From assembly GCA_050633305.1 (NCBI GenBank), contig JBOEGF010000018.1, forward strand, positions 736,001 to 800,000: a DNA stretch of 64,000 bases, read 5' to 3'. This DNA comes from Nannocystales bacterium (GTDB taxonomy: Bacteria; Myxococcota_A; Polyangia; Nannocystales; Nannocystaceae). The notes under the pieces are model-generated. The model was not told the origin of the DNA. It was given only the letters and a program-made list of their open reading frames with translations, and ran no database searches. The translations under genes were made by a program, and so were the position numbers. Shown in pieces: positions 8,820 through 64,000 of this stretch; positions within the stretch are counted from its first letter, which is position 1; every line of letters starts with the position of its first letter.

Positions 8820-10043
<1,224 letters not shown>

Positions 10044-28557: not shown

Positions 28558-31329
28558 GTGGATTCGCTCCCCGATTCACGCTCTCAGACCCCGACGGACG
28601 CGCCGCCGGTGCACACGTTCGTGCCGGGCGAGAAGATCGGGCGCTATGTGCTGCTCGAAGAAGTCGGGCAGGGCGGGATGGGCGTTGTATTCGCGGCGTT
28701 CGACCCGCAGCTCAACCGCAAGATCGCGCTGAAAATTCTCCGCGCACAGCAGGCCGAGCCGGACAACAAGCGCCAGCTGCGTGCGCGGTTGTTCCGTGAG
28801 GCACAGGCCATCGCGAAGCTTTCGCACCCCAACGTCATCACCGTGTTCGATGTCGGGAACGTCGGGGCGTCGGTGTTCGTGGGCATGGAGTTCGTCGAAG
28901 GACTCACCCTGACCGACTTCCTCGCGACACCACGCCCGTTGGAGTCGATCTTGGACGCGTTTGCCCAAGCCGGGCGAGGGCTGAGCGCCGCGCACCAAGC
29001 CGGGCTCGTGCATCGGGACTTCAAGCCCGACAACGTACTGATGGGGTTCGACGGGATCGCCCGCGTCTCCGATTTCGGTCTCGCGCGTAGCGATCCCAGC
29101 CTCGTGGTCGAGGAAGGGGATTCGGACGAGTTCGAGGCTCACTCCCCGCAGGCGGTGGACGACGTCGACCTTCTCTCCTCGCCGATGACGCAGGCGGGGG
29201 CGGTGGTCGGCACGCCGCGGTACATGGCACCTGAGCAACACGCGGGCGCGCCACCGGACCCGAGAAGCGACCAGTTTGCGTTTTGCGTGGCGCTGTACCA
29301 GGCGCTGTATCGACAGGACCCGTACGTCGCTCACTCGATGGAGCGGCTGGTGCACGCCAAGCAAGAAGGGCGGATCGCGGAGCCCCCGAGCGGGGTCCCG
29401 ATTCCCGGGCGCATCGAGCAGCTGATCTGGCGGGGGCTCGCACCGGATCCGCGCCGACGGTACACAACGATGGAGGCTCTGCTGGAGGACCTCCGGGATC
29501 TTCCCGCCGTGGCGGGCCGTCCGGTGCTTCGATGGGTGGTCGGACTGGGGTTGTCTTCGGCCGCGCTTGGCATTGCCGCGCTGCAGTCCGGTGGCACGAC
29601 CCGGGCACCGTGTGACGACGGTCCGAGTCGTTGGCAAGCGACCTGGAACCCCGAGCGACGGGAGGCGGTTCGGTCTGCGTTCGCGGGGGTCGACCCCGAG
29701 GCGAGTACGCTGTCGTGGCTGTCCGTGGAGCGAGGCCTGGACGCCTACGGAGACGCTTTCAAGCAGCAGTACGCGGAAGCCTGTGCGTCCGTCAAAGGTG
29801 CTCGCCCGGCCGACGACATGTTCTTCCGGCTGCGTCAGTCTTGCCTCATGGAACGTCGGGACTTTGCGGCGTCGCTTGTAGATCTTCTCGAGGACCCCGA
29901 TGCCGCGCTGGTCCACGCCGCGCCACAGGCTGTCGCCGAGCTTCCCGGGATGGCGCGGTGCTCAGAGGTGGCGGGTCTGATCGCACGCGGGATGCCGACG
30001 CGGGTCGAGGAGGAACTCGCTGCCACGGAGTTTCGCGGTGCGCTGATGCAGACCCGAGTTCTGGGATTGGCTGGACAGTTCTCCGCTGCGCAAGCGCGTG
30101 CGACGGAAGCCCTCGAGCGGGCGGAAGCGCTCGGGTTCGGCGAGTTTGTCGCGGAGGGCCACCTCGTGCTCGGCCGAGCGCTGGCCCAGGGGGGTCGATA
30201 CGCGGATGCGGAGCAGCATCTTCGGGAGGCCGTGCTGGGAGGCACGCGGTTTGCCCATGATGAGGCGGCAGCCGAGGCTGCGATCGCGCTCGTGGAGGTC
30301 GTCGGTGTTCGGTTGGATCGCCACGCCGAAGCGGACCTGTGGGAGGCCCAAGCCGGGGCGCGGCTCGACCGGATCGCGGAGCGGGGGATCCTTCGTGCTC
30401 GGCTCGAGAACAGAGCGGGGCGCCTCGACGCGCGGCGTGGTGACAACGCTGCCGCGAGGGCGCACTACACCGTGGCGCTGTCGTTGCGGAGTCAGGTCCA
30501 AGGGATGGACGACCCCGGGCGCGCTGCGTGGCTCATCGACCTGGGCAACGTTGCGTTGGCCGAGGGAGCGTTCGACGAAGCGGTCGAGACCTTCGACCGA
30601 GCACTCGCGCTCGCCGAGGCCACGTTGACCGCGTCCCACCCGGCGCGTGCGGCATCGCTGGCTGCCCTCGGCCGTGTTCACCTGCGACGTGAGGAGTACG
30701 GTCCTGCCCGCGAGGCTCTGCTCGAAGCGAAGTCAGGGCTTCAGGGGTCGTTGGGCGCGGAGCACCCTCGCACTGCCATGGTGTTGCTGGGGTTGGCCAA
30801 CGCGGATGAGGGGCTTGGAAATGCTACCGCCGCCGAGGCCGGGTACGCCCGCGCGGCTGACTTGCTCGGCAGCACCCTCGGTCGCGGGCATGTGGCCTAC
30901 CGCCGCGCGCTGTTGGGACGGTCCCGAAGCGCGCGCCGCAGCGATCAACTCGAGGATGCTGTCGGATGGCTGACCCGGGCTTGTGGAGGTCCGGCGGTGC
31001 CTGCTTCGGTTCGCGGTGCGTGCCTGATGGAGCGAGCCGAGTTCGATTTTGCGGCGGAGCGATTCGTCGACGCGGCGGCCGGGTTCACAAACGCGGCGGC
31101 ACGCTTCGAAACGGGGGCGCTTGCCGATCCGCGACGCCGGGCAGAGGCGTTGTTGGGCGTCGCACGGAGCCAACGCTCGTTGGGCCAGGACGACGAAGCC
31201 GCCCGCACGCTGGGGAGCGCTCGAACGGCGGCAGGGCAGGTGAAGGGCTATGTGCCCAACGTCCGCGCCGACATCGACCGGTTCTCGACTCGGCTGAACG
31301 CGGTGGTCGCCGCCACGCTCGAGGAGTAG
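28558..31329 (+). CDS. Hanks-type Ser/Thr protein kinase with TM and TPR repeats
   Basis: VGQGGMGVV, IALK, HRDFKPDN, DFGLA, GTPRYMAPE; TM then TPR repeats (LGAEHPRTA). Confidence 0.95.
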   Translation: MDSLPDSRSQTPTDAPPVHTFVPGEKIGRYVLLEEVGQGGMGVVFAAFDPQLNRKIALKILRAQQAEPDNKRQLRARLFREAQAIAKLSHPNVITVFDVGNVGASVFVGMEFVEGLTLTDFLATPRPLESILDAFAQAGRGLSAAHQAGLVHRDFKPDNVLMGFDGIARVSDFGLARSDPSLVVEEGDSDEFEAHSPQAVDDVDLLSSPMTQAGAVVGTPRYMAPEQHAGAPPDPRSDQFAFCVALYQALYRQDPYVAHSMERLVHAKQEGRIAEPPSGVPIPGRIEQLIWRGLAPDPRRRYTTMEALLEDLRDLPAVAGRPVLRWVVGLGLSSAALGIAALQSGGTTRAPCDDGPSRWQATWNPERREAVRSAFAGVDPEASTLSWLSVERGLDAYGDAFKQQYAEACASVKGARPADDMFFRLRQSCLMERRDFAASLVDLLEDPDAALVHAAPQAVAELPGMARCSEVAGLIARGMPTRVEEELAATEFRGALMQTRVLGLAGQFSAAQARATEALERAEALGFGEFVAEGHLVLGRALAQGGRYADAEQHLREAVLGGTRFAHDEAAAEAAIALVEVVGVRLDRHAEADLWEAQAGARLDRIAERGILRARLENRAGRLDARRGDNAAARAHYTVALSLRSQVQGMDDPGRAAWLIDLGNVALAEGAFDEAVETFDRALALAEATLTASHPARAASLAALGRVHLRREEYGPAREALLEAKSGLQGSLGAEHPRTAMVLLGLANADEGLGNATAAEAGYARAADLLGSTLGRGHVAYRRALLGRSRSARRSDQLEDAVGWLTRACGGPAVPASVRGACLMERAEFDFAAERFVDAAAGFTNAAARFETGALADPRRRAEALLGVARSQRSLGQDDEAARTLGSARTAAGQVKGYVPNVRADIDRFSTRLNAVVAATLEE

Positions 31330-44709: not shown

Positions 44710-47307
44710 CTATGTCATGGCCAGGGAAATCCCGCGTTGCGCGAAGTCGGAGATGAACCCTTGGAGGGCCGCGGTGTGGGTCCAGTTCCTCGTGTGGGGA
44801 TCGAGACTGACCAGGTCGGTGACGACGGCGGTACCCGAAGATGAGACCCCCGGGGAGGACAGCTGCGTGATTCGGGTGATGCCGTCGCCGAAGCGGTTGA
44901 CCACGATGATGAGGTCGAGACTCGCGGCCACTCGAAGCACACGAGTGTCCGCAGACGCCGAGCCGCCCGCGAGCCCGCTGAGGGCGGCCAGCCGCTGCAG
45001 CCCCTCATCGGCCGTGGAGGCACGCGTGGTGAGTACAACCCCATCGAGACCTCTGCCCAAGGCCGTGAGCGCCGAACCGGCCTCCGCCCCTGTGATGTCA
45101 TGGATGAGCAGACGACCAGGTGCGAGCCCCAGCCCAGCGTCGACGAGACCAGGCATCGCGTGGGCGCGGGAGCTCTGAAGCACCACGGCGTTCTCTGGAA
45201 GCTGCGCGGCCTCGTGGTTGGGACGGACGACGACGAGCCTTTGACTGGCTGGCGCCGCGAGGGCCAGGGCGGCGGCCATCGGGAACGCTCGAGCGCCCGG
45301 ACCGGCGAACACCGCGATTCGCAGACCACTGTTCACGGCACTGCTCAACAGCTTGGCAATCGCATCCGAAAGCGCTGCGCTGGCCGTCAGCTGGCCAAGG
45401 TCGTAGCGAGGCTGGACAGACGCCGCGCGCCGGATGCTGACGATCGGGCCATCGACCGCGAGGCTCTGGTGGACGGCATGGACCCGGTGGCCGTCGGCAG
45501 TCGTGGCCTCGATGACGGGATTGGTCGGGGCAAAGCTCGATCCTGTGAGCCGGGTGACGACCCATGCGAGGGCTTCGTCGCTGGAGAAGGATGACTCTTC
45601 CGATGCGACCGACTGGCCGTTTTTTACGATCAGGCAGTGGCTGGGTCCACGGAGCAGAATCTCTGTGATGTGAGGGTCGCGAAGCAACGCGTTGAGCGGA
45701 CCGACCCCGCACAGCTCGGTCTGCATGCGCGCCGAAAGTGACATCGGCTCGAGATGACCGACGGTCTCTTTGAGGTCTTGAAGCCCGGAGCGAAGGCGCG
45801 TGACCAAGGTGTCATCGTCGAGTCCGGGTTCGGCGAGCCATCGGTCGCGTACCGTCGCAAAGACCTGCCGGCAGGCCTCTCGGGTCTGGGCTTCGCGGGG
45901 GAGCCCAACCAACGCAGCGGGGTGCAGTACGGAAGGTGCACCGTGGCCTCCGGTGGAGGGGGCCATGACCGGAGAGGAGATCGCGACCGGAGGTGCAGCT
46001 GCCGGGCCCACGCGCGGCATCGACCACGCGTCGGGCGTGGGGCCGGCGGGGCCCGGATTCGACGAAGGCGGGGCATCCTCGGGCGGCCGTTCGAGCGCGA
46101 CCACGTCGTCGGCCATCATGGTGGCGCCGGTCCGAACGGGGGACTTCGAGCCCAAGACGACCTTGGGCGCGGAGGGGGTGCTCGCATCCGGGTGATGGGT
46201 TGGCGTGTCCAACTCCCCTTTGGCCGAAGGGGCGGACGTGGACGGGGTGATCGGGGCCTGTTTGGGCGTCGAAGCCCCGGAGGGGGGATGTAGAACGGGT
46301 TTTGCGGCGGCGGGCGGGGGCTCCGGTTCCGCGGCGACCGAAGGCGGGGCGGCCGGAGGCGGCTCGGGGGCGGCCTCCGGGACCGCCGCGGGTGGGTCCG
46401 CCATCGGTGGCGGGGCCATCGGAGGAGGAGCCGAGGGTGGCTCGGGTGTGGGAGGGGCGGCCATCACCGGAGGGGTCATGGGCGGTGGAGCCATCGGGGG
46501 CGGGGCCATCGGGGGCTCTGCGATCGGGGGCTCGACGACCGGCGGCGCGCTCGGGTCCGCGCCACCGATCATCGGTGGCAGCGTTGGGGCACCGGGCGCT
46601 TTCTGAGCTCGCAGCTTGAACGGCGGTTCGGCCTCGAGCACCGGAGGGCTTGCGGGAGCGTCGAGCGGCGGCGGGAGGGATGGGTCAACCCGCGGTGCGG
46701 GGGACATCGCCGGAGGCGGGGCACCGATCGAAGGGGGTGGCTGGCCGATGGCTGGGGGCGGGGCCCCGATCGGTGGCGGTGGGGCGCCGAGCGGAGGCGC
46801 GGGGCCTCCGATGGCCGGGGGCGGTGCGCCGATGGGTGGCGGCGGTGCATCGAGCGAGGGCGGGGGTCCTCCGAGGGCCGGGGGAGGGGCTCCGATAGCG
46901 GGAGGCGGGTTGCCGATGGGGGCAGGGCCCTGGGGCGGGGTGCTGGCCGAGACGGGGCCGACCGGGCCGGGCAAACCGCCCGCTACGGGGTGCTGGGAGG
47001 GGGGTCCGGCGGAAGCACCATCGAGTTCGAACGCCAGCTTGTAGGAGCAGACGTACACCTCGTCGCCTGGCATGACCATCTGCGGACCCTGGATGCGGCT
47101 GCCGTTGACGAACGTGCCGTTGGTCGAACTCAGGTCGATCAGCGTCAGCGATCCGTCCGTGTAGAGGATACGCGCGTGGCTCGAGGAGACGCCCGGCTCG
47201 GGGATGCGGACGTCGTTGCTTGGGGTGCGCCCGATCGTGATCTCGCGCTTGTCGAACGATGTCGTGGTCGGAGGCTGGCCGGTCTTCGAGATCGTGATGC
47301 GCAACAT
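44710..47307 (-). CDS. FHA domain + Pro-rich linker + degenerate TadA/CpaF (VirB11-like) ATPase domain
   Basis: FHA IGR..SSSHA..DLSSTNGTFVN; CpaF-like GVGPLNALLRDPHITEILLRGP and GPIVSIRR; Walker A, Asp box, Walker B and His box substituted. Confidence 0.85.
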   Translation of the reverse strand: MLRITISKTGQPPTTTSFDKREITIGRTPSNDVRIPEPGVSSSHARILYTDGSLTLIDLSSTNGTFVNGSRIQGPQMVMPGDEVYVCSYKLAFELDGASAGPPSQHPVAGGLPGPVGPVSASTPPQGPAPIGNPPPAIGAPPPALGGPPPSLDAPPPPIGAPPPAIGGPAPPLGAPPPPIGAPPPAIGQPPPSIGAPPPAMSPAPRVDPSLPPPLDAPASPPVLEAEPPFKLRAQKAPGAPTLPPMIGGADPSAPPVVEPPIAEPPMAPPPMAPPPMTPPVMAAPPTPEPPSAPPPMAPPPMADPPAAVPEAAPEPPPAAPPSVAAEPEPPPAAAKPVLHPPSGASTPKQAPITPSTSAPSAKGELDTPTHHPDASTPSAPKVVLGSKSPVRTGATMMADDVVALERPPEDAPPSSNPGPAGPTPDAWSMPRVGPAAAPPVAISSPVMAPSTGGHGAPSVLHPAALVGLPREAQTREACRQVFATVRDRWLAEPGLDDDTLVTRLRSGLQDLKETVGHLEPMSLSARMQTELCGVGPLNALLRDPHITEILLRGPSHCLIVKNGQSVASEESSFSSDEALAWVVTRLTGSSFAPTNPVIEATTADGHRVHAVHQSLAVDGPIVSIRRAASVQPRYDLGQLTASAALSDAIAKLLSSAVNSGLRIAVFAGPGARAFPMAAALALAAPASQRLVVVRPNHEAAQLPENAVVLQSSRAHAMPGLVDAGLGLAPGRLLIHDITGAEAGSALTALGRGLDGVVLTTRASTADEGLQRLAALSGLAGGSASADTRVLRVAASLDLIIVVNRFGDGITRITQLSSPGVSSSGTAVVTDLVSLDPHTRNWTHTAALQGFISDFAQRGISLAMT

Positions 47308-51399: not shown

Positions 51400-54018
51400 A
51401 TGTCCGTCCAACCACGCAACCTCGTCAGTCGACTCAACCCCTCCTGCAACAGCGCGCTCACGGCCATGGTCGACCGGGCGGCGTCCGGCGGCTACCACGA
51501 GATCGTGGTGGAGCATCTGCTGCTTGGTCTCATCGAGGTCGAAGACGGCGACATCGCGCACATCCTCCGCTTCTTCGGCAAGGAGCAGACGCGGGTCGCG
51601 GCCGAAGTCGAGCGCGCGGTCCAGATGATGGCGACCAACCACCAGGGCAAGCCTCGGTTCTCCGCGACGCTGTTCAAGTGGATGGAGAGCACGTGGGTCA
51701 TCGCGTCCATCGAGCGGGGGTCGGTGCAGATTCGATCTGGCGATCTGTTCCTCGAGTTTCTGTCCAACCCCGGCCGTTACACCGGTGAGGCGTTCTCGGA
51801 GTTGGACGGGCTGGACCTGGTCGAACTCAAGAACAACTTCGCGGAGATCCTCTCGGGCAGCAAAGAGGCGCTCGAGGTCCCCTCGGCGGCAGGGGCAGGC
51901 GTGGCCGGCCCGGGTCAAGCCTCCGCACCGGGACGAGAGGCGCTCGACAGGTTCTGTATCTCCTTCACCGAGAAGGCGAAGCGCGGCGAGATCGACCCGA
52001 TCTTCGGACGCGACCGCGAGATTCGTCAGATGATCGACATCCTCGCGCGGCGCAGAAAAAACAACCCGATTGCCGTCGGAGAGGCCGGCGTAGGCAAGAC
52101 CGCGTTGGTCGAAGGCTTGGCCCGGGCGATCGTTCAAGGCGATGTTCCTGCGGAGCTGGCGCAGACCGAGCTGCTGTCGCTGGACATGGGCCTGCTCAAG
52201 GCCGGCGCCGGAGTCAAAGGCGAGCTCGAGAACCGATTGAAGAAGGTCATCGCCGAGGTCAAAGGTTCGCCCACCCCGATCATCATGTTCATCGACGAGG
52301 CGCACACGCTCGTGGGTGGAGGCGGCGGTGACAACGAGATCCCGAACCTGCTCAAGCCTGCGCTGGCGCGAGGCGAGTTCCGTACCGTCGCCGCCACGAC
52401 GTACTCGGAGTTCAAGAAGTACTTCGAGAAGGACCCCGCACTCGAGCGTCGGTTCCAGCCGGTTCACGTCAATCAGCCCTCGGTCGACGATGCGATCTTG
52501 ATGCTCCGCGGCTTACGGGGTGTCTACGAAAACGCCCACAACGTCGTGATTCGGGAGGATGCCGTCGTCGCGGCCGCGAAGCTCTCCGATCGCTACATCA
52601 CGGGCCGCCAGCTGCCCGACAAGGCCGTCGACTTGCTCGACACCGCAGCCGCGAGGGTTCGCATCGAGCAGGATGCTCCGCCGGCAATGGTGGTGTCGTT
52701 GCGCTCCGAGCACGCCTCACTCGAGCGCCAGCTCGACGTCATTCAGCGAGACATCGCGGACGCGGCGACCGAGGACGACGGCCGTGTCGAGGAGCTGGAG
52801 AGTCGCATGGCTGCGATCGTTGCCGAGCTGAACGCACTCGAGGAGCAACTCGGCCAAGAGAAAGAGATCATCGCCGAGATCAAGGACGCCCAGGCGATCC
52901 TTCGGGACGAGGAAGGCGAAGCCGACGCCAAGGAGAAGGCCTCCACCGACATCGTGGATGCTCGGGCGCGGCTGCAAGCGCTGCAGGGCGAGAATCCGTT
53001 GGTGCACTACGAAGTCGACGTCGACGCGGTCGGGCAGGTTGTCTCGAGCTGGACCGGCATCCCGATCGGCAAGATGCGGTCGGACTCGATCGAGACGATG
53101 CTCAAGCTCGAGGACAAGCTTGGTTCGCGCATCAAGGGCCAAGACCAGGCGACGAGCGCCGTGGCGGAAGCCATTCGCATGTCCCACGCTGGGGTGCGAA
53201 ATCCGGACACGCCCATCGCCGTGCTCCTGTTCGTCGGCCCCTCGGGCGTCGGAAAGACCGAGATGGCCCTGACGCTCGCAGACGAACTCTATGGCGGTGA
53301 GCGGTCGATGACGACCATCAACATGTCCGAGTTCCAGGAAAAACACACGGTCTCGCGCCTCATCGGGTCGCCTCCGGGCTACGTCGGGTACGGGGAAGGT
53401 GGCGTGCTCACCGAAGCCGTGCGGCACAAACCGTACAGCGTCGTGTTGCTGGACGAGGTCGAGAAGGCCGACCTCGAGGTCATGAACCTCTTCTACCAAG
53501 TGTTCGACAAGGGGATGCTGAGCGACGGCGAGGGGCGGATGGTCAACTTCCGCAACACGGTCGTCATCCTCACCAGCAACCTCGCGACCGACAAGATCAT
53601 GGGCATGCACGAGGGCGGCACCAAGCCTCCCGTCGAGGATGTCGTCGCCGCGATCTGGCCCGAGCTCTCGGGTCACTTCAAGCCCGCGCTTCTGGCCCGC
53701 ATGTCCGTCGTCCCGTATCGCCCGATGGATCCGGAGATCCTGGCCGACATCGCAAAGCTCAAGCTTGGGAGTCTCGCCAAGCGACTCCACGGTACCCACG
53801 GCATCGACACGACCTTCGAGGACTCGCTGATCGAGCACCTCGTGGCGCGCTGCACCGAGGGCGACACGGGCGCGCGTGCCCTCGACCACGCGATGCGTGG
53901 CTCCCTCATGCCCAACCTTGCGCGCGCCCTACTCGAGAAGATGGCGGACGAAGAGATGCCGCCCACGCTGTCCATCGGCCTCGACGACGATGGCGGCTGG
54001 AAGTTCAGCTTCGCCTAA
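51400..54018 (+). CDS. clpV: T6SS ATPase ClpV/TssH
   Basis: DPIFGRDREIRQMIDIL.RRRKNNPI, GEAGVGKT, LKPALARGE, RQLPDKAVDLLD, GPSGVGKT, FYQVFDKG. Confidence 0.97.
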   Translation: MSVQPRNLVSRLNPSCNSALTAMVDRAASGGYHEIVVEHLLLGLIEVEDGDIAHILRFFGKEQTRVAAEVERAVQMMATNHQGKPRFSATLFKWMESTWVIASIERGSVQIRSGDLFLEFLSNPGRYTGEAFSELDGLDLVELKNNFAEILSGSKEALEVPSAAGAGVAGPGQASAPGREALDRFCISFTEKAKRGEIDPIFGRDREIRQMIDILARRRKNNPIAVGEAGVGKTALVEGLARAIVQGDVPAELAQTELLSLDMGLLKAGAGVKGELENRLKKVIAEVKGSPTPIIMFIDEAHTLVGGGGGDNEIPNLLKPALARGEFRTVAATTYSEFKKYFEKDPALERRFQPVHVNQPSVDDAILMLRGLRGVYENAHNVVIREDAVVAAAKLSDRYITGRQLPDKAVDLLDTAAARVRIEQDAPPAMVVSLRSEHASLERQLDVIQRDIADAATEDDGRVEELESRMAAIVAELNALEEQLGQEKEIIAEIKDAQAILRDEEGEADAKEKASTDIVDARARLQALQGENPLVHYEVDVDAVGQVVSSWTGIPIGKMRSDSIETMLKLEDKLGSRIKGQDQATSAVAEAIRMSHAGVRNPDTPIAVLLFVGPSGVGKTEMALTLADELYGGERSMTTINMSEFQEKHTVSRLIGSPPGYVGYGEGGVLTEAVRHKPYSVVLLDEVEKADLEVMNLFYQVFDKGMLSDGEGRMVNFRNTVVILTSNLATDKIMGMHEGGTKPPVEDVVAAIWPELSGHFKPALLARMSVVPYRPMDPEILADIAKLKLGSLAKRLHGTHGIDTTFEDSLIEHLVARCTEGDTGARALDHAMRGSLMPNLARALLEKMADEEMPPTLSIGLDDDGGWKFSFA

Positions 54019-54071: not shown

Positions 54072-54102
54072 GAACCTGGGCTCTCCTCGGAGGCCCAGGT
54101 TT
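54072..54102. terminator. Hairpin between convergent clpV and cassette genes
   Basis: AACCTGGGC...GCCCAGGTT inverted repeat followed by T-rich sequence on the plus strand. Confidence 0.6.
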
Positions 54103-54125: not shown

Positions 54126-54929
54126 TCAGCTCGATGACCCGTCACCGTCGGCGGCCGCGCGAGCTCGAGGGCTCAACCGCGGGGCGGGCGTCCGGTCTTC
54201 GATCGTCTCGCTGGGCAGGCGTTGGAGCATCTGCGGAGACTGCTCAGCGCCCTCGACCGCATTCGCAAGGTAGTTGGGAAGGAGCAGCACCGGGCCGAGG
54301 GCCCCGAGTTGAGCCGGGGAAAACCCGCGGTCGAGAAACACGGCAGCGGTGGCGGCTGCGATGTTCATCGGTGCACCGCGTGGTTGGAGCCGTGCGTCGG
54401 CTGCGATGAGAGTTCGCCAGTGCTCGCCGTCCTCGTAGCCGCGGGAGCGCACACATTTTGCCAACGCAACCGCACGCTCGTCTTGCTCGCGGAACGCGAC
54501 GCCGAACCCCGGGATGTGGTGCAGCCGTTCGACTTCCGCGTCGAGGTGAGTGTCTCGCTCGGCGAGGGGGAGGGCGGCGAGCGATTGGAGAAAAGACGCT
54601 GCCGGGGCGTAGGTGCCCCAACCCATAAATCCGCCCGCGGTGCTGAGCATGCCCGCCGCCAAGGCTGGGACGCCGTTGCCGAAGGAGGATACGAGACGCG
54701 TGACCTTGAGTGGCCAGATGTGGGGGTCGGCTGCGAGGGAGCAGACCACGACATCTCCAAGAATCTCGCACTCTCGTTGGGATAGGCAGCGGTGCCCGAC
54801 GGCGAGAGAGAGCGCTGACCAGTGCTCGGTCTTGCCTGCGAGTTGGGATCCGACGGCAAACCCCCGGAACTGGTTTTCTCCTCGGTCTGCCCGGCCAACG
54901 GAGGTCGGGAGTTCATGGCCGTCAGTCAT
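54126..54929 (-). CDS. Divergent citrate synthase/citryl-CoA lyase-fold protein
   Basis: TSVG..FRGF..L.GK..LAVGHR N-terminus, ADPHIWP, IPGFG, QDERA, MNIAAA..AVFLDRGF. Confidence 0.65.
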   Translation of the reverse strand: MTDGHELPTSVGRADRGENQFRGFAVGSQLAGKTEHWSALSLAVGHRCLSQRECEILGDVVVCSLAADPHIWPLKVTRLVSSFGNGVPALAAGMLSTAGGFMGWGTYAPAASFLQSLAALPLAERDTHLDAEVERLHHIPGFGVAFREQDERAVALAKCVRSRGYEDGEHWRTLIAADARLQPRGAPMNIAAATAAVFLDRGFSPAQLGALGPVLLLPNYLANAVEGAEQSPQMLQRLPSETIEDRTPAPRLSPRARAAADGDGSSS

Positions 54930-55578
54930 GCCCGTCGCTCCGTGGCGGTTGGTAGTCAAAGTTGGGGAGCTGCATCGGGTAGCCGCGAACATCATTCCGT
55001 GTCGCGGCCATCGCCTCTGCGGCGAGGGTCGGCAACCGGGCAACACTGCGCGCGACCATGCGCTGCATCGGTGACGAGAGTCCTGCGGCGCTCAACACCC
55101 GGTCCGCGTGGCAGCACACGGTTGAGGTGGGGACGCCGACGGTATCTTGCACCTCGCTTGGCAGAGATCGATGGAACTCCAGGGCGGCGGGGGTTGGTTC
55201 CGACGAGGCCGATGGAGCCGCGGCTTCGGCAGAGACCTGTTCGAGCAGAGCCAACATTCCGGTCTCGAGGACGCTGCGCTCGTCGGCTCCACACCGACGC
55301 GCCAGTGTTGCGACGTGCACGGCCGCTGTATCGACACCGCCGCCACCGAGGATGATGAGAGCCATGTTCACCGCTCGCCCCCAACTCGGCGAGGGGGGCG
55401 TACCCACGAGCGCGGTTACGAGAAACTCGCCAAAGTCGTAGTGACGGGCCAGGTCCTCCTGGAGCGCGTACCCATGCACGCGAGGACGGGGCCCCGGGCT
55501 TACGACGTGCGCATCGAGTTTCTCGGGCCATGGGGTTGCCTCCACGGGCCTGCGCGAGGTGGCCTTGGGCTCGGTCAT
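54922..55578 (-). CDS. Short citrate-synthase-fold protein
   Basis: RVHGYALQEDLARHYDFGEFL..LVGTPP, AAVHVATLA, ARLPTLAAEA; overlaps both neighbours. Confidence 0.55.
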   Translation of the reverse strand: MTEPKATSRRPVEATPWPEKLDAHVVSPGPRPRVHGYALQEDLARHYDFGEFLVTALVGTPPSPSWGRAVNMALIILGGGGVDTAAVHVATLARRCGADERSVLETGMLALLEQVSAEAAAPSASSEPTPAALEFHRSLPSEVQDTVGVPTSTVCCHADRVLSAAGLSSPMQRMVARSVARLPTLAAEAMAATRNDVRGYPMQLPNFDYQPPRSDGHD

Positions 55579-57320
55579 CGGTTTCGGAATCCGGCGATTG
55601 CCTTGGCCCGGGGTCCGAGCGGAGGGACGATATCTCCGTCGACCCGCACCTCGATGAGCTTGGGTCCCTCGATGAGGAGCGATTCTCGAACAACATCATC
55701 CATCTGACCGGGACGCTCGACGACCCAAGTTGTCAGACCCATCGCCCTCGCAATCGAGGAGATATCGATCGGCTGTCGGTAGCGAACCGACTTCATCGGA
55801 GCGCCATCACCGACCAGTTTGCTGCCGTGCCAAGTGATGCCATGCATCTGGTTGTTCTCGACGATCCACAGGACGTTGATGCCGTACTCGGCAGCCGTGA
55901 GCAGGTCGAGGCCGTTCATTGTGAAGCACGCGTCACCGATGATTGCGACGACCTGGCGGTCGGGTCGGACAAGGGCCGCCCCAATCGGCGCACAAGTTCC
56001 GTGCCCCATCGAGCCAAACCCGAGGTTGAGATAGAACTCCCGCGCGCCGCCGATTCGGAGGTCGTGCACGTTGAACAGCATATGGCCACCGATGTCGCTG
56101 AAGATCAGTGCGTCGTCCGGGAGCGCGTGTCCGAGGTCAACTCTCCAGCGTTGTGGGGTCACGGGTTGCGCATCTGAGGTCCTCTCCTCGGGAGCGTCGT
56201 AGTAGCCGTGCCCTTTCTCCACGGGCGGGTGCTCGCCCCATGTGGACTGCGGCTCCCGGCCTTCGCGGACGAGGCGATGAATGTGATAGATGAGTTCGAT
56301 CGAGATCGTCTGCGCATCGCCGACGAGCGGGACGTCGACGGGGTAGTTGCGGGCGATACGGTCCACGCTGATATCCAGTTGGATCAGAGCGGTCTTGGGG
56401 CGGAAGTCGGGATGCCAGTTCAGCGTGGTCGTCTCACTCAACGACGCGCCCATTGTCAGGAGAACATCGACATCTCGGCCGAGAAGCACCTCGCGGGCCG
56501 CGCGGTGTCCTCCGATCCCCATGACGCCAAGGGAGAGCGGGTGGTCTTCGGGGAACACACCTTTTGCCCGAGGGCTCGTGGCGACTCGAGCCGGTAGTAG
56601 CTCTGCGAGCGCGAGAACATGTTGCTGGGCACGGGCGGTCGCGACCCCGGATCCGACGAGTAGGACCGGGTACTCAGCCTCGACCAGCGTCCGGGATGCT
56701 TCAGCCACCCGGTTGCGATCGAAAACCTCTGTGGTGGGGCGGTAGGATGACGGCTTGAACCATTGCTCGTCGGCGGGCTGTTCCCAGAAATCGACGGGGA
56801 CGTTTAGGTGAACGGGGCCCGGTCGCCCGGTGAGAGCAAGACGCAACGCGCGGCGCAGGTGGTGCGACATCCTTCCGGGCCCGCTGACCATCGTCGAGTA
56901 CTTGGTGACGGGCTTGAACATCGCGACGATGTCGATATCCTCGGGCGGCGTTTCTTGGGCCGCACCTTTCCCCAAGGAGTGCGACGGCGCCTGTCCGGTG
57001 ATGACGAGCAGTGGGACGCCGTCGGAGTAGGCCACAGCGACGCCGGTGAGGAGGTTGGTGGCGCCGGGGCCGGAGGTGCCCGCACAAACCGCCAAGCGTT
57101 GGCCCGCGCGCGCGTACCCATCCGCCATGAACGCGGCACCCGCTTCATGCTTCGCGACGACGAGTTCCAAGTCGTCGTCTCGCTCGATCGCCGCAAAAAG
57201 TGGGTGGAGCAGGCCGCCCGGGACGCCGAACACGACGCGCGCACCCTCAGCTCGGAGGTACCGGAGGAACACATCGATCATGCGCTCCCCGGGGGCGGGC
57301 GACGAAGGCTGCTCGTTCAC
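55575..57320 (-). CDS. Thiamine-diphosphate-dependent enzyme (acetolactate-synthase-like superfamily)
   Basis: VFGVPGG, KHEAGAAFMADGYAR (catalytic Glu), TSGPGATN, GPVHLNVP, GSMG, GDACFTMNG..ENN. The GTG start overlaps the kinase TGA; alternative ATG 57281. Confidence 0.92.
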   Translation of the reverse strand: MNEQPSSPAPGERMIDVFLRYLRAEGARVVFGVPGGLLHPLFAAIERDDDLELVVAKHEAGAAFMADGYARAGQRLAVCAGTSGPGATNLLTGVAVAYSDGVPLLVITGQAPSHSLGKGAAQETPPEDIDIVAMFKPVTKYSTMVSGPGRMSHHLRRALRLALTGRPGPVHLNVPVDFWEQPADEQWFKPSSYRPTTEVFDRNRVAEASRTLVEAEYPVLLVGSGVATARAQQHVLALAELLPARVATSPRAKGVFPEDHPLSLGVMGIGGHRAAREVLLGRDVDVLLTMGASLSETTTLNWHPDFRPKTALIQLDISVDRIARNYPVDVPLVGDAQTISIELIYHIHRLVREGREPQSTWGEHPPVEKGHGYYDAPEERTSDAQPVTPQRWRVDLGHALPDDALIFSDIGGHMLFNVHDLRIGGAREFYLNLGFGSMGHGTCAPIGAALVRPDRQVVAIIGDACFTMNGLDLLTAAEYGINVLWIVENNQMHGITWHGSKLVGDGAPMKSVRYRQPIDISSIARAMGLTTWVVERPGQMDDVVRESLLIEGPKLIEVRVDGDIVPPLGPRAKAIAGFRNR

Positions 57321-59050
57321 GCTCGGGGCCGAATCCTCACCACGCGCTCGAATCGGCTGCGAGGTGTGTCGTGCCCAGAGCGAGTCTCCGTCTTGTGCCC
57401 GGGCGGCGGGTTCACTGGAAGCGTCACCCAAATCGTCGTGCCCTCTCCTGGGCTGCTCATGATCTCAAGCCGGCCGCCCATCTGGTCCAGCATGCGAACC
57501 ACGATCGAAAGGCCATCACCGTGGCTGGTGCCGGCGATTGGGGCTCGATCGGGCTGGCCGCTGAAGAACACTTGCTCGAGGCGGTCTTCCCCGATCCCCC
57601 GCCCGGTGTCCGACACCTTGAGTTGGAGGTGGCCGGGGACCCCGGAGACTTCCGCGACGATCGACCCGTCCTTGGTGTACTTGCAGGCGTTGGTGAGAAT
57701 GTTGTCGACCACCCGCTCCAGCAGGGTCTCGTCAGCGTGCAGCGTGGGTGGTGACTCCCGAGTTTGGAACACCGTGATGCGAATCCCACGTCCCATCACC
57801 GTCGCGCGAAGCTGTCGGCGGATTCGGTTGGTCAGATCATCGACGTTGATGTCGGTCGCGACCGGTGGACGTTCCCCGTCCCCGCGGACGATGCAAGACA
57901 TCTCGGTGAGGAGCGCCTCGAGCCTGTTGACCGCCGTCCCGACCGCGCCGACCGTGTCGTCGTAGTCAGAGTCCCGTTGGCCATCGAACCGGTTCAGTTC
58001 CTGCGCCGATGCTTTGAGCACCGTGAGCGGGTTGTTCATGTCGTGCGAGAGGTTGAGGAGCTGGCTGTTCTGGGCCACCTCACCGCTGCCGTCCAGCTGA
58101 CCCACGACCTCCTCGAGTTTTTCGCGCCGCTCGTGAAATCGAGTTTCGATGCTGTGGCTCCACTGCCGCTCGCGGCTGTGAAGGGCGAGGAGCTCATCGA
58201 CGGCACGGGCGTGATCCTGGACAACCTTCTCCACCTCGTAGGAGGTCTCTTCGGCAAAGCCTAGGTAGTCATGCAACATGACCCGGAGTTGCGCGATCAG
58301 GCCGAGTCCCATCCCGAGGACTGCGAGCAACACCGGCATGTAGCTCGCCGTGGAAGGCGTTGTGGCCAACAGAGCGTGGCCCGTGACGAACCCGACGATC
58401 GTGCCGAGGATGGGGTAGCGGAGTCGAAGCGGTTCGCGCCAGGAGAGCGCGTACTCGCAGTAGTCGTCACCGTCACATAGCCGCTTGTTCACTCGAACCC
58501 GCGCGGAGCGGAGTCCCCACCAAAGAGAGGGGACCGAGGCGAGCTGTGCTTGGCGGGACAGGCAGTTCAGTCGAGAGTCGGGCCGCTTGCTGTGGTAGCG
58601 GAGGAGGATGGAGTTCCGCCGGCTCTCGATAACCTCGTAGTGACTGACCCGCGTCACCAGATGGCTTGTACGAGCCATCGCCTTGTAGCCGGTGTTGACG
58701 GTCATGGACCGGATGACCAACAGCAGCGGCCCGTACATCTTCTTGAGTTCGAAGACGCAGGCCTTCATGAAGGCCTTGTCGGAACCAACGAGCTCGCGTG
58801 CGCCCGAGAGGATCGCTTCGAACACCGGGAGTGAGACCCACGGCGCAGACCGTTTCAAGACCGTGGTCTCGGCGCCCGCATCCCGGACGATCCGGTGCAA
58901 CGTATCTTCGCCGTGGTGCTCTCGCAGGTACCGAAACAGCGGCCTGAGCACCCGCAGATTCAGTTCTTCCGGCTCCCCGCGGACAACAGGAGGTTCCTCC
59001 TCTGTCACGACGCGCAGCGGTAGCTTGATCGGGCGGGATGGATTCGACAC
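57317..59050 (-). CDS. Sensor histidine kinase with N-terminal H-NOX-like/V4R domain and 2 TMs
   Basis: LFRYLREHHGEDTL..WVSLPVF; LNCLSRQ..LCDGDDYCEYALSW (V4R-type Cys); H-box LSHDMNNPL, N-box NILTNACKYT, G1 DTGRGI, G2 HGDGL. Confidence 0.88.
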   Translation of the reverse strand: MSNPSRPIKLPLRVVTEEEPPVVRGEPEELNLRVLRPLFRYLREHHGEDTLHRIVRDAGAETTVLKRSAPWVSLPVFEAILSGARELVGSDKAFMKACVFELKKMYGPLLLVIRSMTVNTGYKAMARTSHLVTRVSHYEVIESRRNSILLRYHSKRPDSRLNCLSRQAQLASVPSLWWGLRSARVRVNKRLCDGDDYCEYALSWREPLRLRYPILGTIVGFVTGHALLATTPSTASYMPVLLAVLGMGLGLIAQLRVMLHDYLGFAEETSYEVEKVVQDHARAVDELLALHSRERQWSHSIETRFHERREKLEEVVGQLDGSGEVAQNSQLLNLSHDMNNPLTVLKASAQELNRFDGQRDSDYDDTVGAVGTAVNRLEALLTEMSCIVRGDGERPPVATDINVDDLTNRIRRQLRATVMGRGIRITVFQTRESPPTLHADETLLERVVDNILTNACKYTKDGSIVAEVSGVPGHLQLKVSDTGRGIGEDRLEQVFFSGQPDRAPIAGTSHGDGLSIVVRMLDQMGGRLEIMSSPGEGTTIWVTLPVNPPPGHKTETRSGHDTPRSRFERVVRIRPRA

Positions 59051-59259
59051 GACGAACGAGGACCGTTGCCTGCGGAAATCACGATAACAAAGGCGGGATG
59101 GTGCGGGTCACCAAACTGGTCGCTAAACGGGGTTTTGTGGCGTTCTTGGGCCACATCACCTTACACGTGCATGGAGTGGTCGCAGCCGGCCATGTTCAAC
59201 GTTCTGTTGGTAGGGGTGACAGGCCGTGCCCGTGTTAAGCTGCGGCTCGCGGATTCTGC

Positions 59260-60609
59260 ATGACGGCTGTCGCAATCCGAGTCTTCGACTCCGAGGCAGG
59301 GACGACGACCGAGTACGCCTACACGGCGTCCCCGGTTCGTATCGGCCGAAACCCTCTCAATGACCTGACGCTGCCGTTCCCGTTCGTTTCGGGATGGCAT
59401 GCGGTGGTGCGCTTCGATGGGTCCGGGGCGAAGTTCTTCGACCTCGGCTCGACCAACGGTACGCTGTACAACGGCAGGCGTGTTCAAGCGGGTGAAGCGA
59501 TCCCGGTTGCGGGCGCGGTTTCCCTGACGATTGGCAAGCTGGAGCTGCGAATCCAGCAGGGGGAGGTCGCAGGGGCTACACCGGCCCCGCCTGCACCGGC
59601 CCCACGGGTGGCGGCGCAGGCCGTGGTGCACAACCCCGCGGCGTATTCGCCGACGTCGGTGCACAACTCTCCGGCCATGCCGGCTCCGGTGAACACGACG
59701 TCCGTCCCCAACGTGCCCGCGAGCCCGGTTCCGGCCCCGGCACCGGCCCAACACCGGAGCCCGAGTCCTGGGGCCGGGGCAGGCACCGCCGCAGTCGACA
59801 TGGGGGATGTTCACCAGTCGGTGAACCGGCTGCGCCCGCACTACGATGCGTACCGGCAGTCCTGGAGGGCGATGCTTCAAGAGGTCAGTGGGACGCTGTC
59901 CTCCATGCCGCCCGAGACTCACGGCTATGCGCTGTCGATTCTTCAGCGCGAGTTTCCGGAAGTCGTTGGAGAGCCGGAGTTCAAGCGCATGGCCGAGCAA
60001 GCGGGCGCTCTACAGGGTTCTTCGGCCCAACGCTCTTCGGGCGGGAGCTCGGGTGCGGTTGCACGCCTTGCCAGCTCGATCCGACCCGGAGATGCTCCTC
60101 CGGCGAGCGCGGCCGAGGAGGAACGCTTCCTCTCGTGCGTCGAGGATGTGCTGCGAGCCAGTGCCAAAGCGCTCGTCGAACTCCAAAAAGGGCAGGAGCA
60201 GTTCGGCGCGGAGATGGGAGTTCGCACCATCAAGGAATACACAGCGCTGCATGCAGCGGGCTCGTCGGAGGCAGTCCTGGCATACCTGCTCGACTGGAAA
60301 GCCGGGGGGACCGCGCGGACCCAAGAACTGGTGGGGGTCTACGCGGACCTGATGATCCACCAAGTCGCGTTGATCAACGGTCTGATGGAAGGCGTTCGGG
60401 GGCTGCTCTCCCGCCTGTCGCCTCAGGAGATCGAGCGTGGCGTCAATGCTGGTTGGGCAACCCGGGGCGCTGCGGTGTGGAAGCGCTACGTCGAGAAGCA
60501 CCAGCAGCTGACCGGGGAAGACCAAACGCTGACTTCGGTGGTCTTCGGGCCCGAGTTCGCCCGAGCATACGCTGAGGTTGGCGGCGAGGGGACTTCGTCG
60601 GGCTCCTGA
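59260..60609 (+). CDS. tagH: T6SS-associated FHA protein (TagH/Fha-like)
   Basis: FHA IGR..VSGWHA..DLGSTNGT; C-terminal DLMIHQVALING..LLSRLSPQEIE..VWKRY..FGPEFARAY. Confidence 0.85.
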   Translation: MTAVAIRVFDSEAGTTTEYAYTASPVRIGRNPLNDLTLPFPFVSGWHAVVRFDGSGAKFFDLGSTNGTLYNGRRVQAGEAIPVAGAVSLTIGKLELRIQQGEVAGATPAPPAPAPRVAAQAVVHNPAAYSPTSVHNSPAMPAPVNTTSVPNVPASPVPAPAPAQHRSPSPGAGAGTAAVDMGDVHQSVNRLRPHYDAYRQSWRAMLQEVSGTLSSMPPETHGYALSILQREFPEVVGEPEFKRMAEQAGALQGSSAQRSSGGSSGAVARLASSIRPGDAPPASAAEEERFLSCVEDVLRASAKALVELQKGQEQFGAEMGVRTIKEYTALHAAGSSEAVLAYLLDWKAGGTARTQELVGVYADLMIHQVALINGLMEGVRGLLSRLSPQEIERGVNAGWATRGAAVWKRYVEKHQQLTGEDQTLTSVVFGPEFARAYAEVGGEGTSSGS

Positions 60610-61772: not shown

Positions 61773-62402
61773 TTACTCGATGCCGCGGTTGCGGCGAGTG
61801 CGGGTCTGCGTGCGATCGTTGGTGACCTTCTTGACCTCGAGGGTCATGGTCAAGATCTTGCCGTTGTTCTTTTTGACGAGGTAGACCTCGTTGGCCTCGG
61901 CGAGTGAGGCGAGCTTGCCTTTGCCCAGCTTTCGCTTCTTCCAGACGCACGCACGGTACGTGCGCGGCTTGTCGTAGCCTTCGCGGTCGGGCAACTCGAC
62001 GAGGCGGTAGCGGCCGTCCTCGGTCTCGACAAACTGGTACGCGCACTCCCGCGTCTTGCACGACGCGTCGAACGTGACGAACAGCAGTGGCTTCCCGTTG
62101 AGCTCGTCGATGTCGAGGATGAGGCCGGCCGTGTTGCGGGTGGTGACCTGCTTGTCGACGACCTTGTCGGACTCTTCGGTGATCTTCCGATCGACATTGA
62201 ACGACTCGTCGACGCTCGCCTCGTTGTACAGGGCGATCATCTTTCGCTCGGTGTAGACGCGTAGCGGGGCGATGCCGGCCTCGGTCGTCACTTTCGCGAG
62301 TTCTTTGGGCGACAGCGGGGTGCGTTTCGCACAACCCGCCTGAGCCAAGGTGGCAGCGAGGAGTACGCCAAACGTCAGGGGCGAGAGGCTGAGACCGCGC
62401 AT
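61773..62402 (-). CDS. Hypothetical basic lipoprotein
   Basis: Lipobox-like QAGC, 209-aa ORF, typical codon usage. Confidence 0.72.
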   Translation of the reverse strand: MRGLSLSPLTFGVLLAATLAQAGCAKRTPLSPKELAKVTTEAGIAPLRVYTERKMIALYNEASVDESFNVDRKITEESDKVVDKQVTTRNTAGLILDIDELNGKPLLFVTFDASCKTRECAYQFVETEDGRYRLVELPDREGYDKPRTYRACVWKKRKLGKGKLASLAEANEVYLVKKNNGKILTMTLEVKKVTNDRTQTRTRRNRGIE

Positions 62403-62533
62403 TGTTCGCCCTGTGGACTACCGAATCCACGGTACCAAAGTCAAAAGGAAACGCGTCCGAGCGCAGAATCTGTCCCGAACCCGTCGTTTCCTGGCCCTAT
62501 CGGGGGCAGGAACGCTACAACCGAGCCTCGGGC

Positions 62534-64000
62534 ATGATTCGACTGTCGGTCAGTGAACAGGGCGCGCCGCCGCGGCTGGTGACGTTCGACAAACCCCAGG
62601 TCCATGTCGGCCGGGCCGGGGATTGTGAGCTGTGCATCGGCGGCAAGGGCATCTCGTCGCGGCACTGCCGGTTCACGCAGACCCCTGGCGGCGTTGTCGT
62701 CGAGGACCTTGGCTCGACCAACGGGACGTACGTCAACCGGCAGCCGATTCAGGGCGCTGTCGCCGTGACCGCGCGCGATGAGGTCATCGTCGGCATGTAT
62801 GAGATCCGGTTGCACGAGGTCGCGACCGGGATGAGCGCGGCGCCGCCCGTCTCACACGCTCCGATGGGGCCGGCGGCGGGCGGAAACCGACAGCCGACCG
62901 GCGTGGTGCCGCCCCAGTTCGCTGCACAGGCGATGTCGTCGGGCCCCATGCCGACGCCCTCCGGCGCGATGCCTGCGGTCGCGCCGGCATCAGGACCATC
63001 GGCGGTCTTGAACCCGAGTATCGACCCAGACTGGGCTCGGCAGTGGGAGAAGCTCGACAGCCTCGCGCGCGAATGGATCGCGGCGGGCAAGGACCGCAAG
63101 CGGTTGCTCCGCGGCGGCAAGCTCACACACGCTCGCACGTGGCTGGCATCAGGAAAAGGGAAAGCGCCCGCGCCGAAGCGGGAGCATCGCGACTTCATCT
63201 TCGCGTCCAGTCGGGCCCGTCAGATGCGGATCGTCCGCAACGTCACGCTGGGAGGCCTGGTCGTTTGCGTGGGGGTCGTCGGGGCGATCAAGATCGCGCA
63301 GATCGTCGGAGATGAGGCCGACGAAGGCGGGGACGAGGTCGCCAACGCCGAGCAGACTCCCAACGAGGCCGGCACCCCGAAGGGCAGCGGGGACGAGCGC
63401 GGCTCTCCGCTGGCTCGGCTTGCCGTCACCGCGGCAGCGTCGGCGGAGGAAGGTGGGGATCCCACACTTGCGGTGTTGCTTGCGACAGCGGGCCTCGACG
63501 CCTCCTCCTCCGAGGCCCGAGGAACCGAGGTGGAGCTCGCGTTCCGCTCGTCGATCGGGAAGCTCCAAGGCAAGCCGCTTCGCGGACACGACGACCCGAT
63601 CACCGACGCCGCGTTCAGCGATGACGGGCACTGGTCGATCACCGCCAGCAAGGACGGAAGCGTTCGACTCTGGGACCGGACCGGCGAGTCGCGTCGGCCC
63701 ACCTCGCTTCGCGGTCACAGCCGCGGGGTGCTCGACGTGCTGGTCACGCCAGACAGCAAGTTTCTCTTCACCGCCGGGGAGAACGGCAAGGTCTTGCGTT
63801 GGGACCTCGGCTCGTCCGAAGTGATGAGCAACTATGTCTCGCTCCCGGGCCACTCCACCTCGGTCGGCCACCTCGCGGTCAGCCGGGATGGCAGGTGGCT
63901 TGTCAGCGGGTCAGCGGACGGCAGCGTACGGGTTTGGAACGCCTCGTCACCCGTCCCGAAGTCTCGGAAGTTTCCTGGGCACGACGCGCCGATTCGGGCG
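62534..64000 (+). CDS. FHA + STAND-associated helical segment + TM + WD40 repeat protein (3' partial)
   Basis: Not in the ORF track. Manual translation: MIRLSVSEQG..VGR..ISSRHC..DLGSTNGTYVN; LAREWIAAGKDRKRLLRGGKLTHARTW..RDFIFAS; TM; LRGHDDPITDAAFSDDGHWSITASKDGSVRLWD. Confidence 0.85.
   Translation, partial: MIRLSVSEQGAPPRLVTFDKPQVHVGRAGDCELCIGGKGISSRHCRFTQTPGGVVVEDLGSTNGTYVNRQPIQGAVAVTARDEVIVGMYEIRLHEVATGMSAAPPVSHAPMGPAAGGNRQPTGVVPPQFAAQAMSSGPMPTPSGAMPAVAPASGPSAVLNPSIDPDWARQWEKLDSLAREWIAAGKDRKRLLRGGKLTHARTWLASGKGKAPAPKREHRDFIFASSRARQMRIVRNVTLGGLVVCVGVVGAIKIAQIVGDEADEGGDEVANAEQTPNEAGTPKGSGDERGSPLARLAVTAAASAEEGGDPTLAVLLATAGLDASSSEARGTEVELAFRSSIGKLQGKPLRGHDDPITDAAFSDDGHWSITASKDGSVRLWDRTGESRRPTSLRGHSRGVLDVLVTPDSKFLFTAGENGKVLRWDLGSSEVMSNYVSLPGHSTSVGHLAVSRDGRWLVSGSADGSVRVWNASSPVPKSRKFPGHDAPIRA

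Follow-up and report, generated by a model that had tools for sequence, protein, structure and literature searches.

Why should a sensor histidine kinase, an enzyme that depends on thiamine diphosphate (ThDP) and two citrate synthase (CS)-like proteins be encoded together inside a type VI secretion system (T6SS) locus? The question arises from a 64,000-nucleotide stretch of a Nannocystales genome (contig JBOEGF010000018.1, positions 736,001 to 800,000; hereafter the window), which is part of contig C18 of an 11-Mb genome that is 92% complete; close homologues of its genes carry the name Nannocystaceae in their source records. An initial annotation of the window had proposed that the enzymes make a diffusible metabolite sensed by the kinase, possibly gating T6SS expression. 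We find that the four genes form a real, widespread and uncharacterised cassette. That it is a mobile myxobacterial unit for making and sensing a small molecule is a reading to which we give about an even chance. The four genes and their flanks are:

57317-59050, minus strand, sensor histidine kinase gene (577 aa)
55575-57320, minus strand, ThDP-dependent carboligase gene (581 aa)
54922-55578, minus strand, CS1 gene (218 aa)
54126-54929, minus strand, CS2 gene (267 aa)
51400-54018, plus strand, clpV, left flank (Pfam AAA/Clp domains)
59260-60609, plus strand, tagH-like FHA gene, right flank, divergent

All four reading frames and their overlapping junctions were re-read in the sequence and lie where the initial annotation had put them: the kinase and ThDP genes meet at GTGA (57317-57320), the ThDP gene and CS1 at ATGA (55575-55578), and CS1 and CS2 at ATGACTGA (54922-54929). 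Pfam and TIGRFAM domain matches agree with its placement of the genes between clpV and a divergent tagH, the surrounding T6SS locus comprising tssA, B, C, tagF, tssM, L, K, J, hcp, tssE, F, G and clpV. The tagH product scores 99.8 bits against TIGR03354, under the cut-off of 120.25, and its Pfam T6SS_FHA_C match is above cut-off. The kinase had been called an orphan, and no receiver domain occurs among the scanned window genes; inspection by eye of the 20 kb beyond, a stretch read without a Pfam scan, showed none either. At third codon positions the four genes have a G+C content (GC3) of 0.74-0.80; with a mean of 0.81 (sd 0.045) for the window, this is low-normal and rules out a recent foreign island.

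The four genes keep each other's company far beyond this window. Over all genome and metagenome loci fetched, and with loci that had too little flank excluded from each count, CS1 adjoins CS2 in 85/88, a ThDP gene lies within 3.5 kb of CS2 in 69/70, and the cassette kinase lies within 6 kb of CS2 in 36/59; after collapsing at 70% identity the counts are 58/61, 47/48 and 27/41, respectively. At least five gene orders unite all four (window, L029, L150/L047, L154 and L073). From an even sample of 401 Myxococcota genomes, 22 gave a strong CS2 match; all of these have a ThDP gene as the neighbour of CS2, and 13 have the kinase as well. ThDP enzymes of the close clade (at least 54% identity) were present in 23 of the sampled genomes, with CS2 adjoining in 20; the remaining three have CS1 at a contig end, a β-ketoacyl-acyl carrier protein synthase III (KAS III) gene instead, and a case left unresolved on a 1.8-kb contig. 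Close relatives of the sensor domain occur at 17 places in the same sample; at 16 of them a ThDP carboligase is no more than 5 kb away, two of the 16 having KAS III rather than CS, and the 17th is a Ser/Thr kinase fusion on contig C4 of this genome. Five distant sensor copies were inspected, and all five belong to Ser/Thr kinases or a cyclase without a ThDP gene in the vicinity. The association of kinase and enzymes holds in many families and under several gene orders.

The ThDP enzyme has three TPP domains above the Pfam cut-off and shares superfamily and three-domain layout with IlvB of acetohydroxyacid synthase (AHAS), from which the initial annotation had set it apart. Its best PDB matches are BbmA (417 bits; E 1e-123, residues 15-567), CsmA (311 bits) and AHAS I (242 bits). 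Unlike IlvB, it falls under every NCBIfam AHAS cut-off (374 bits against the 538 needed for TIGR00118), and the AHAS signature motifs are, as we take it, missing. Neither ilvN (TIGR00119), already reported as absent nearby, nor ilvC (TIGR00465) gave a match anywhere in the 92%-complete genome, with controls matching in 13 and 14 of 14. From the BbmA likeness, the sub-cut-off AHAS scores and the failure to find ilvN and ilvC, we conclude that it is not IlvB and read it as a carboligase of specialised metabolism. The catalytic E59 and a GD..NN motif are invariant in 51 clade members. BbmA and CsmA are homologues of CybE that yield α-hydroxy-β-keto acids, according to excerpts of PMC12395478, where the second name is spelled BpmA; by likeness to this pair, the cassette enzyme is predicted to be of the α-hydroxy-β-keto acid synthase type.

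The two CS-like proteins were harder to place. A single-sequence PDB search with CS2 gave no match, and only profiles found relatives. A CS2 profile aligned residue by residue with citryl-CoA lyase 6hxp (E 6e-18), and a structure model of CS2 (pLDDT 89) retrieved the same entry in Foldseek (E 9e-9, TM 0.70). CS1 is shorter than its paralogue and lacks the CoA loop; its profile matches are weak (3o8j, E 8e-5; 6hxp, E 3e-4), and hhalign joins it to CS2 with a probability of 92% over 209 columns. On these comparisons, CS1 and CS2 are predicted citryl-CoA-lyase-fold paralogues, of which CS1 is degenerate. Both had been described as citrate-synthase-like with GFG followed by V, a motif that is present in CS2 but has no counterpart in CS1.

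CS2 has the fold, length, GFG loop, D-x-R and N motifs and C-terminal arm of 6hxp and citrate synthase but departs from them at the catalytic centre: DH has become DP, the His of HGG is gone, GYGH reads GFGV, NVD reads NIA, and the Arg preceding the last helix is gone. We take the replaced positions to be the catalytic His and Asp, the substrate-binding His and the carboxylate-binding Arg. Compared with citrate synthase, then, both catalytic His are lost, the Asp base is replaced by G/A/S, the carboxylate-binding Arg is missing, and there are two unequal paralogues. With the canonical catalytic positions lost, neither citrate synthesis nor citryl-CoA cleavage is expected of CS1/CS2; genuine citrate synthases are present elsewhere in the same genome. 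The new state is itself conserved. In 121 CS2 sequences, gathered by a word-seeded search that raises apparent conservation, V144 occurs in 117 and P69 in 120, G, A and S are the three most frequent residues at position 191, and K75, R78, G141, R147, D150, E151, R152, N189, N223, E226 and R255 are each found in 119-121. The protein thus keeps the CoA loop GFG plus D150, R152 and N189, and K75, R147, E151 and N223 appear as new invariant residues. Judged by these columns, the CS2 site is under selection although its canonical residues are gone.

Single-gene CS2-like forms of about 300 aa lie behind other ThDP enzymes (L167:9555-10466, L168:9193-10101, L226:6223-7161). By eye, their N-terminal extension resembles part of CS1, so that they are possibly a one-chain version of CS1+CS2. 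Longer, fused forms of CS1 were not seen among 7999 candidates, which is weak evidence.

A clue to the role of the CS pair comes from the loci in which it is exchanged. In genome G409 (L211), the kinase and a ThDP gene of the clade are followed by a KAS III-like gene replacing CS1-CS2, and this KAS III-partnered ThDP enzyme is nested within the clade of the window's enzyme. Two BbmA-like sister enzymes in G282 directly adjoin KAS III-like genes, and the ScyA-like clade is mixed, with a KAS III partner in some members (the copy on C32 of this genome, G409, G193) and CS1-CS2 in others. Starred branches in a 44-row ThDP tree (an IQ-TREE quick tree whose long outgroup branches were flagged) force at least four changes between CS and KAS III partners, and the CS pair partners at least three ThDP lineages of just ~30% identity. 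CybE and CybF together make furanolides, and a ThDP enzyme with KAS III is the cybE/cybF core (excerpts of PMC12395478); a bare cybE/cybF pair has been proposed, without genetic proof, for a butenolide of the myxobacterium Plesiocystis (part of PMC8777810). Because CS and KAS III partners swap repeatedly beside the ThDP enzyme, we infer that CS1-CS2 fill the CybF slot, and the pair is likely to be a replacement acyl-CoA-dependent second enzyme.

There are at least two other possibilities for the CS pair. It could be a non-catalytic regulatory subunit or carrier that binds CoA or a metabolite and serves the ThDP enzyme, the output being a simple acyloin, a convergent analogue of CAI-1/LAI-1. 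The loss of all canonical catalytic positions in CS2 and the absence of a CoA loop from CS1 are in keeping with this, and synthase-kinase pairs with α-hydroxyketone signals are known (PMC3376566, in part). We nevertheless regard it as very unlikely, since a docking subunit would hardly partner at least three ThDP lineages only ~30% identical, the pair alternates with an enzyme (KAS III-like), and about ten near-invariant polar residues are kept around the old active site. Alternatively, the cassette could be catabolic: the kinase would respond to a compound from outside, such as a prey acyloin or a hydroxyacyl-CoA, and this would be cleaved by the ThDP enzyme together with a CoA-lyase-like pair. 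CS2 does have a lyase fold, and the superfamily includes ThDP lyases, which match the ThDP enzyme at 148-196 bits in the PDB search. The closest characterised relatives of the ThDP enzyme are synthases, however, the swap partner KAS III is a condensing enzyme, and no transporter, CoA ligase or dehydrogenase is conserved nearby; indeed, no other enzyme or transporter family recurs among the 202 neighbours scanned. A catabolic role is therefore highly improbable. On plasmids, the best ThDP match has catabolic genes around it and neither a CS nor a KAS partner, and the citryl-CoA-lyase-like matches are all distant (5 records).

This genome also carries a separate candidate furanolide core, a ScyA-like ThDP + KAS III pair (L169, C32:50000-62000), accompanied by an O-methyltransferase, a hydrolase, a LuxR-type gene and an RsbR/S/T-like partner-switch cluster. 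Blocks of the same type lie beside a response regulator and the cassette kinase family in G409 (L211) and G193 (L213).

We turn to the sensing half of the cassette. The kinase consists of an N-terminal H-NOX/V4R-fold domain (about aa 28-210), a coiled linker, HisKA and HATPase, the last two above the Pfam cut-off; a transmembrane hairpin is inferred at about aa 213-258, with the second helix alone exceeding the hydropathy cut-off. The window protein has H336, N454, D481, G483 and G485, each of which is shared by 99-106 of 109 full-length homologues. With its H box (H336), N box (N454), G1 (D481-G483-G485) and G2 (G511-x-G513) intact, the protein is predicted to be an active HisKA kinase. Its input domain is:

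58412-58969, minus strand, sensor domain (H-NOX/V4R fold; family motif C163-x23-E187-x2-C190-x7-C198)

A model of the sensor domain (pLDDT 91) matched H-NOX best (Z 13.3, rmsd 3.3, 172 residues aligned), the top folds being zinc-bearing H-NOX proteins of Shewanella and Kordia, followed by the VirS N-domain (Z 12.2) and DmpR (Z 7.6). VirS and DmpR bind small organic ligands, by the titles of their structure entries. No Pfam family exceeded its cut-off in the window's domain, and Pfam V4R matched 8/40 members of the sensor family (best E 0.016). In 151 sensor sequences, C163 is found in 149, R166 in 150 and W71 in 148, with C190 in 139/144, C198 in 142/143 and E187 in 129/145. H130, matched to the proximal His by eye, is present in the window protein and in only 52/151 sequences. 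The pattern Y152-x-S154-x-R156 is kept to a varying degree (Y in 128, S in 109 and T in 26, R in 60 or K in 46), YxSxR being, we assume, the heme-propionate motif of H-NOX. The window protein has V187, R190 and a new C192, so its three cysteines are C163, C192 and C198; against the family's C163-E187-C190-C198, this indicates a zinc site remodelled in this genus. The sensor had been described as H-NOX-like plus V4R with a C..C..C motif. The model bears out the fold, and the cysteines of the window protein depart from the family motif.

In true H-NOX proteins the proximal His is absolutely conserved, and a heme-free Vibrio H-NOX senses oxidation at a zinc-cysteine site, C139/H161/C164/C172 (PMC7108781, in part). 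By its alignment columns, the sensor domain is an H-NOX/V4R fold with a zinc motif and no conserved heme histidine. It shares this fold with H-NOX/HnoK, V4R (DmpR/PoxR) and AraC-N (VirS, CdpR) proteins, and the family shares with H-NOX/V4R sensors the zinc-cysteine layout and, to a varying degree, a YxSxR-like motif. It differs from H-NOX/HnoK in being fused to its own kinase through a predicted transmembrane hairpin and in its non-conserved proximal His.

These features raise the possibility of a kinase that responds, by way of its H-NOX-fold zinc-cysteine domain, to redox state, NO/O2 or a precursor and governs the making of a bioactive metabolite, such as an antibiotic or an aid to predation, that is not its own ligand. 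The best folds are zinc-bearing H-NOX proteins, the family motif matches the layout of the Vibrio redox site (PMC7108781, in part), Y152, S154 and R or K at 156 are kept in 128, 109 and 106 of 151 sequences, and furanolides are bioactive (PMC12395478, in part). Against this stand the presence of the nearest His in only 52/151 sequences, the altered zinc ligands in the window genus, and the fact that a general redox sensor need not stay with ThDP carboligases in 16/17 places. We judge this order of events, sensing and then making, to be unlikely.

The same sensor domain is fused to a Ser/Thr kinase at L032:7878-9791 (contig C4, this genome), and in remoter copies (L217-L221) its fusion partner is either a Ser/Thr kinase, with LysM genes alongside, or a GAF-cyclase.

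In the make-and-sense reading, the four products would act in three steps. First, on the strength of its likeness to BbmA and CsmA, the ThDP enzyme would join two 2-oxo acids to an α-hydroxy-β-keto acid or acyloin. Second, as partner swapping suggests, CS1 and CS2, probably as a putative heterodimer, would bind acyl-CoA and act like the KAS III-like CybF, a partner of the type by which furanolide rings are closed, with acylation and C-C bond formation giving a butenolide; because the His/Asp set is gone, they would need new residues, for which K75, R147, E151, R152 and N223 are candidates. Third, the membrane-permeable product would bind the heme-less, zinc-stabilised cytoplasmic sensor domain and switch the kinase, which would then signal to a response regulator encoded elsewhere. 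For the response regulator that adjoins the kinase in G409 and G193, the best matches in this genome reach 30-33%, too low for a close orthologue.

Several observations weigh against this reading. The role is deduced from the genes, with product and ligand both putative. The acid/base residues known for the fold are missing, so CS1/CS2 may be non-catalytic, and the KAS III genes are typed to family level and not established as CybF orthologues. The top sensor folds are H-NOX gas/redox sensors, with a YxSxR-like motif and the Cys site kept, and the sensor is cytoplasmic, unlike CqsS/LqsS. The kinase is missing from 23/59 loci; in favour of the reading, 12 of the 23 have another signalling gene adjoining the enzymes, a count for which no null was computed. 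The Enhygromyxa version sits among SDR, P450 and transporter genes like a plain biosynthetic unit, and the kinases of L022 and L023 (one genus) have lost the phospho-His while still within the cassette and are, by sequence, pseudokinases. Outside the T6SS clade, sensor distances correlate weakly and not significantly with ThDP distances (rho 0.22, p 0.07), and CS2 distances not at all (rho 0.0, n=21). Finally, the richness of myxobacteria in signalling genes makes adjacency of a sensor weak evidence.

Does the cassette serve the T6SS in which it was found? CS2 was found in 16/60 near genomes. Of 15 loci from relatives, ten, across three genera, carry all four genes at this position of the T6SS locus; in four, the four genes occur and the fetched stretch shows no T6SS gene; and in one (Enhygromyxa type), CS1-CS2 follow a different ThDP enzyme and the kinase is missing. 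The T6SS-embedded copies form one clade (99* support) that tracks the tssF tree at genus level, which points to one insertion followed by vertical descent. By these trees, the cassette entered the slot between clpV and tagH a single time, in an ancestor shared by three Nannocystaceae-level genera. The four genes, whose joint conservation the initial annotation had proposed to survey, stay together in several gene orders, and their linkage to the T6SS is confined to this one Nannocystaceae lineage. Three elements lie between the divergent kinase and tagH genes:

59081-59089, minus strand, extended -10-like element TGnTAnnnT, 39 nt before the kinase start
59152-59166, strand not assigned, conserved 15-nt motif between the divergent promoters, kept in same-genus alignment rows
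59233-59241, plus strand, extended -10-like element, 27 nt before tagH (12/12 loci, also L204)

The first is likely the cassette promoter: one kinase-directed TGnTAnnnT occurs in 12/12 T6SS-embedded loci, which are kin and not independent, against 0.02-0.15 expected per strand from shuffles. It precedes the kinase in 3/24 free loci, which come from other families and for which the windows were placed from the domain start. TGnTAnnnT also precedes tssB, tagH and two more genes of the locus, compared with 83/837 (10%) of unit starts genome-wide; no such element was found before hcp, and a stock promoter/terminator scan gave nothing above chance. The third probably serves as the promoter of tagH itself and either predates the cassette or arose without it. 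In the related T6SS of L204 (12910-13113), which has no cassette, clpV lies directly before tagH and the same extended -10 element stands 27 nt upstream of tagH; the cassette therefore sits in a gap between transcription units. Tree support is low, and the L204 lineage may have branched off before the cassette arrived or may have lost it. The 15-nt motif is a candidate regulator site, a loose pattern of which occurs at 4 places in the genome.

Recruitment of the cassette to gate the T6SS in Nannocystaceae, as first suggested, would be compatible with the make-and-sense reading. It draws on the shared slot over three genera, the agreement of the ThDP and tssF trees at genus level, and the divergent elements of the 12/12 embedded loci with their counterparts before other T6SS locus genes. 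These amount to one clade and one event, however. TssF was found in 1/20 cassette genomes outside Nannocystaceae, 13 family genomes have TssF and no CS2 match, and TssF was not found in two family genomes with a free cassette (78% and 93% complete). The L204 T6SS has the same tagH promoter without the cassette, hcp lacks the element, and L064 (8800-10708) keeps the cassette and its tagH side with the clpV side replaced by DUF3623 and rubrerythrin-family genes, presumably the photosynthesis-cluster genes puhE/acsF. The claim is weakly supported and, in our estimate, unlikely; T6SS control is possible in this lineage and is not the general job of the cassette. Some relatives have a second, divergent T6SS (tssF 36-37% identical) without a cassette (L214, L215, L216).

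How does the cassette compare with known systems? The furanolide cybE/cybF clusters (cyanobacterin, maculalactone; the Plesiocystis/Enhygromyxa pairs) likewise have a ThDP carboligase followed by a second acyl-CoA-fold gene; the closest solved relatives of the cassette ThDP enzyme, BbmA and CsmA, are CybE homologues; the cassette kinase family stands beside ThDP + KAS III pairs in G409 and G193; and a separate pair of this type is present on C32. The cassette differs in that its second enzyme is a citryl-CoA-lyase-fold pair with no KAS III, no CoA ligase gene is included, and a sensor kinase heads the operon. CqsA/CqsS and LqsA/LqsS, like the cassette, place a synthase next to a membrane histidine kinase, an analogy only (PMC3376566, in part), by which acyloin-type chemistry is plausible here. 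Their synthase is PLP-dependent and their receptor has a six-helix membrane pocket, whereas the cassette has a ThDP-dependent synthase plus two CS-fold proteins and a cytoplasmic H-NOX/V4R-fold input. The cassette thus resembles a synthase-receptor pair with furanolide-type chemistry, yet belongs to neither group.

To our knowledge, little has been established about the diffusible signals that myxobacteria other than Myxococcus make themselves. Here, a candidate three-enzyme pathway occurs with its putative receptor in 13/401 sampled Myxococcota genomes, and its enzymes in 22. The repeated swap of KAS III for a CS-fold pair suggests a textbook fold at work in chemistry not yet reported, and clusters with the CS pair would be missed by cybF-based furanolide mining. 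For the unnamed H-NOX-fold sensor family, which is large (161 clusters at E<1e-30), the reading gives an initial idea of what the ligand may be. In its most specific form, which would amount to a new class of chemical signalling in bacteria, a ThDP carboligase and a heterodimeric CS-fold lactone synthase with a rebuilt active site would make a butenolide autoinducer; across Myxococcota a heme-free H-NOX-fold kinase would perceive it, and in one Nannocystaceae lineage it would be wired to the T6SS. We consider this whole chain distinctly unlikely. No description of the cassette was found in the literature searched, which was mostly open-access and included neither supplements nor the primary BbmA/CsmA paper, and term look-ups in the accessible parts of two Myxococcota surveys (PMC12224551, PMC13445942) did not find it described.

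Other features of the locus and its relatives may be noted. A GC-rich hairpin at 54073-54102, between the converging clpV and CS2 stops (z -2.6 on the plus strand, -1.3 on the minus strand), is possibly a two-way terminator. The T6SS locus contains three FHA-domain genes (44710-47307, 59260-60609 and 62402-64000), one with a long Pro-rich linker and, by eye, an ATPase-like tail and one with WD40 repeats, as well as tagF and a TPR Ser/Thr kinase gene (28558-31329); from these genes, threonine-phosphorylation control of this T6SS is likely. Enhygromyxa-type clusters (L025, L036-L038, L061) comprise a ThDP gene (31%), CS1, CS2 and an SDR gene, with transporters or a P450 near and no kinase; cultured E. 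salina strains make them a ready test system. An unnamed family of 150-190 aa with no Pfam match recurs beside ThDP clusters of both partner types:

L169:2142-2606 and 9285-9743; L105, L086, L095, L100 and L104, unnamed 150-190 aa family
L223:5890-6456 and L224:7719-8213, same family, membership by eye

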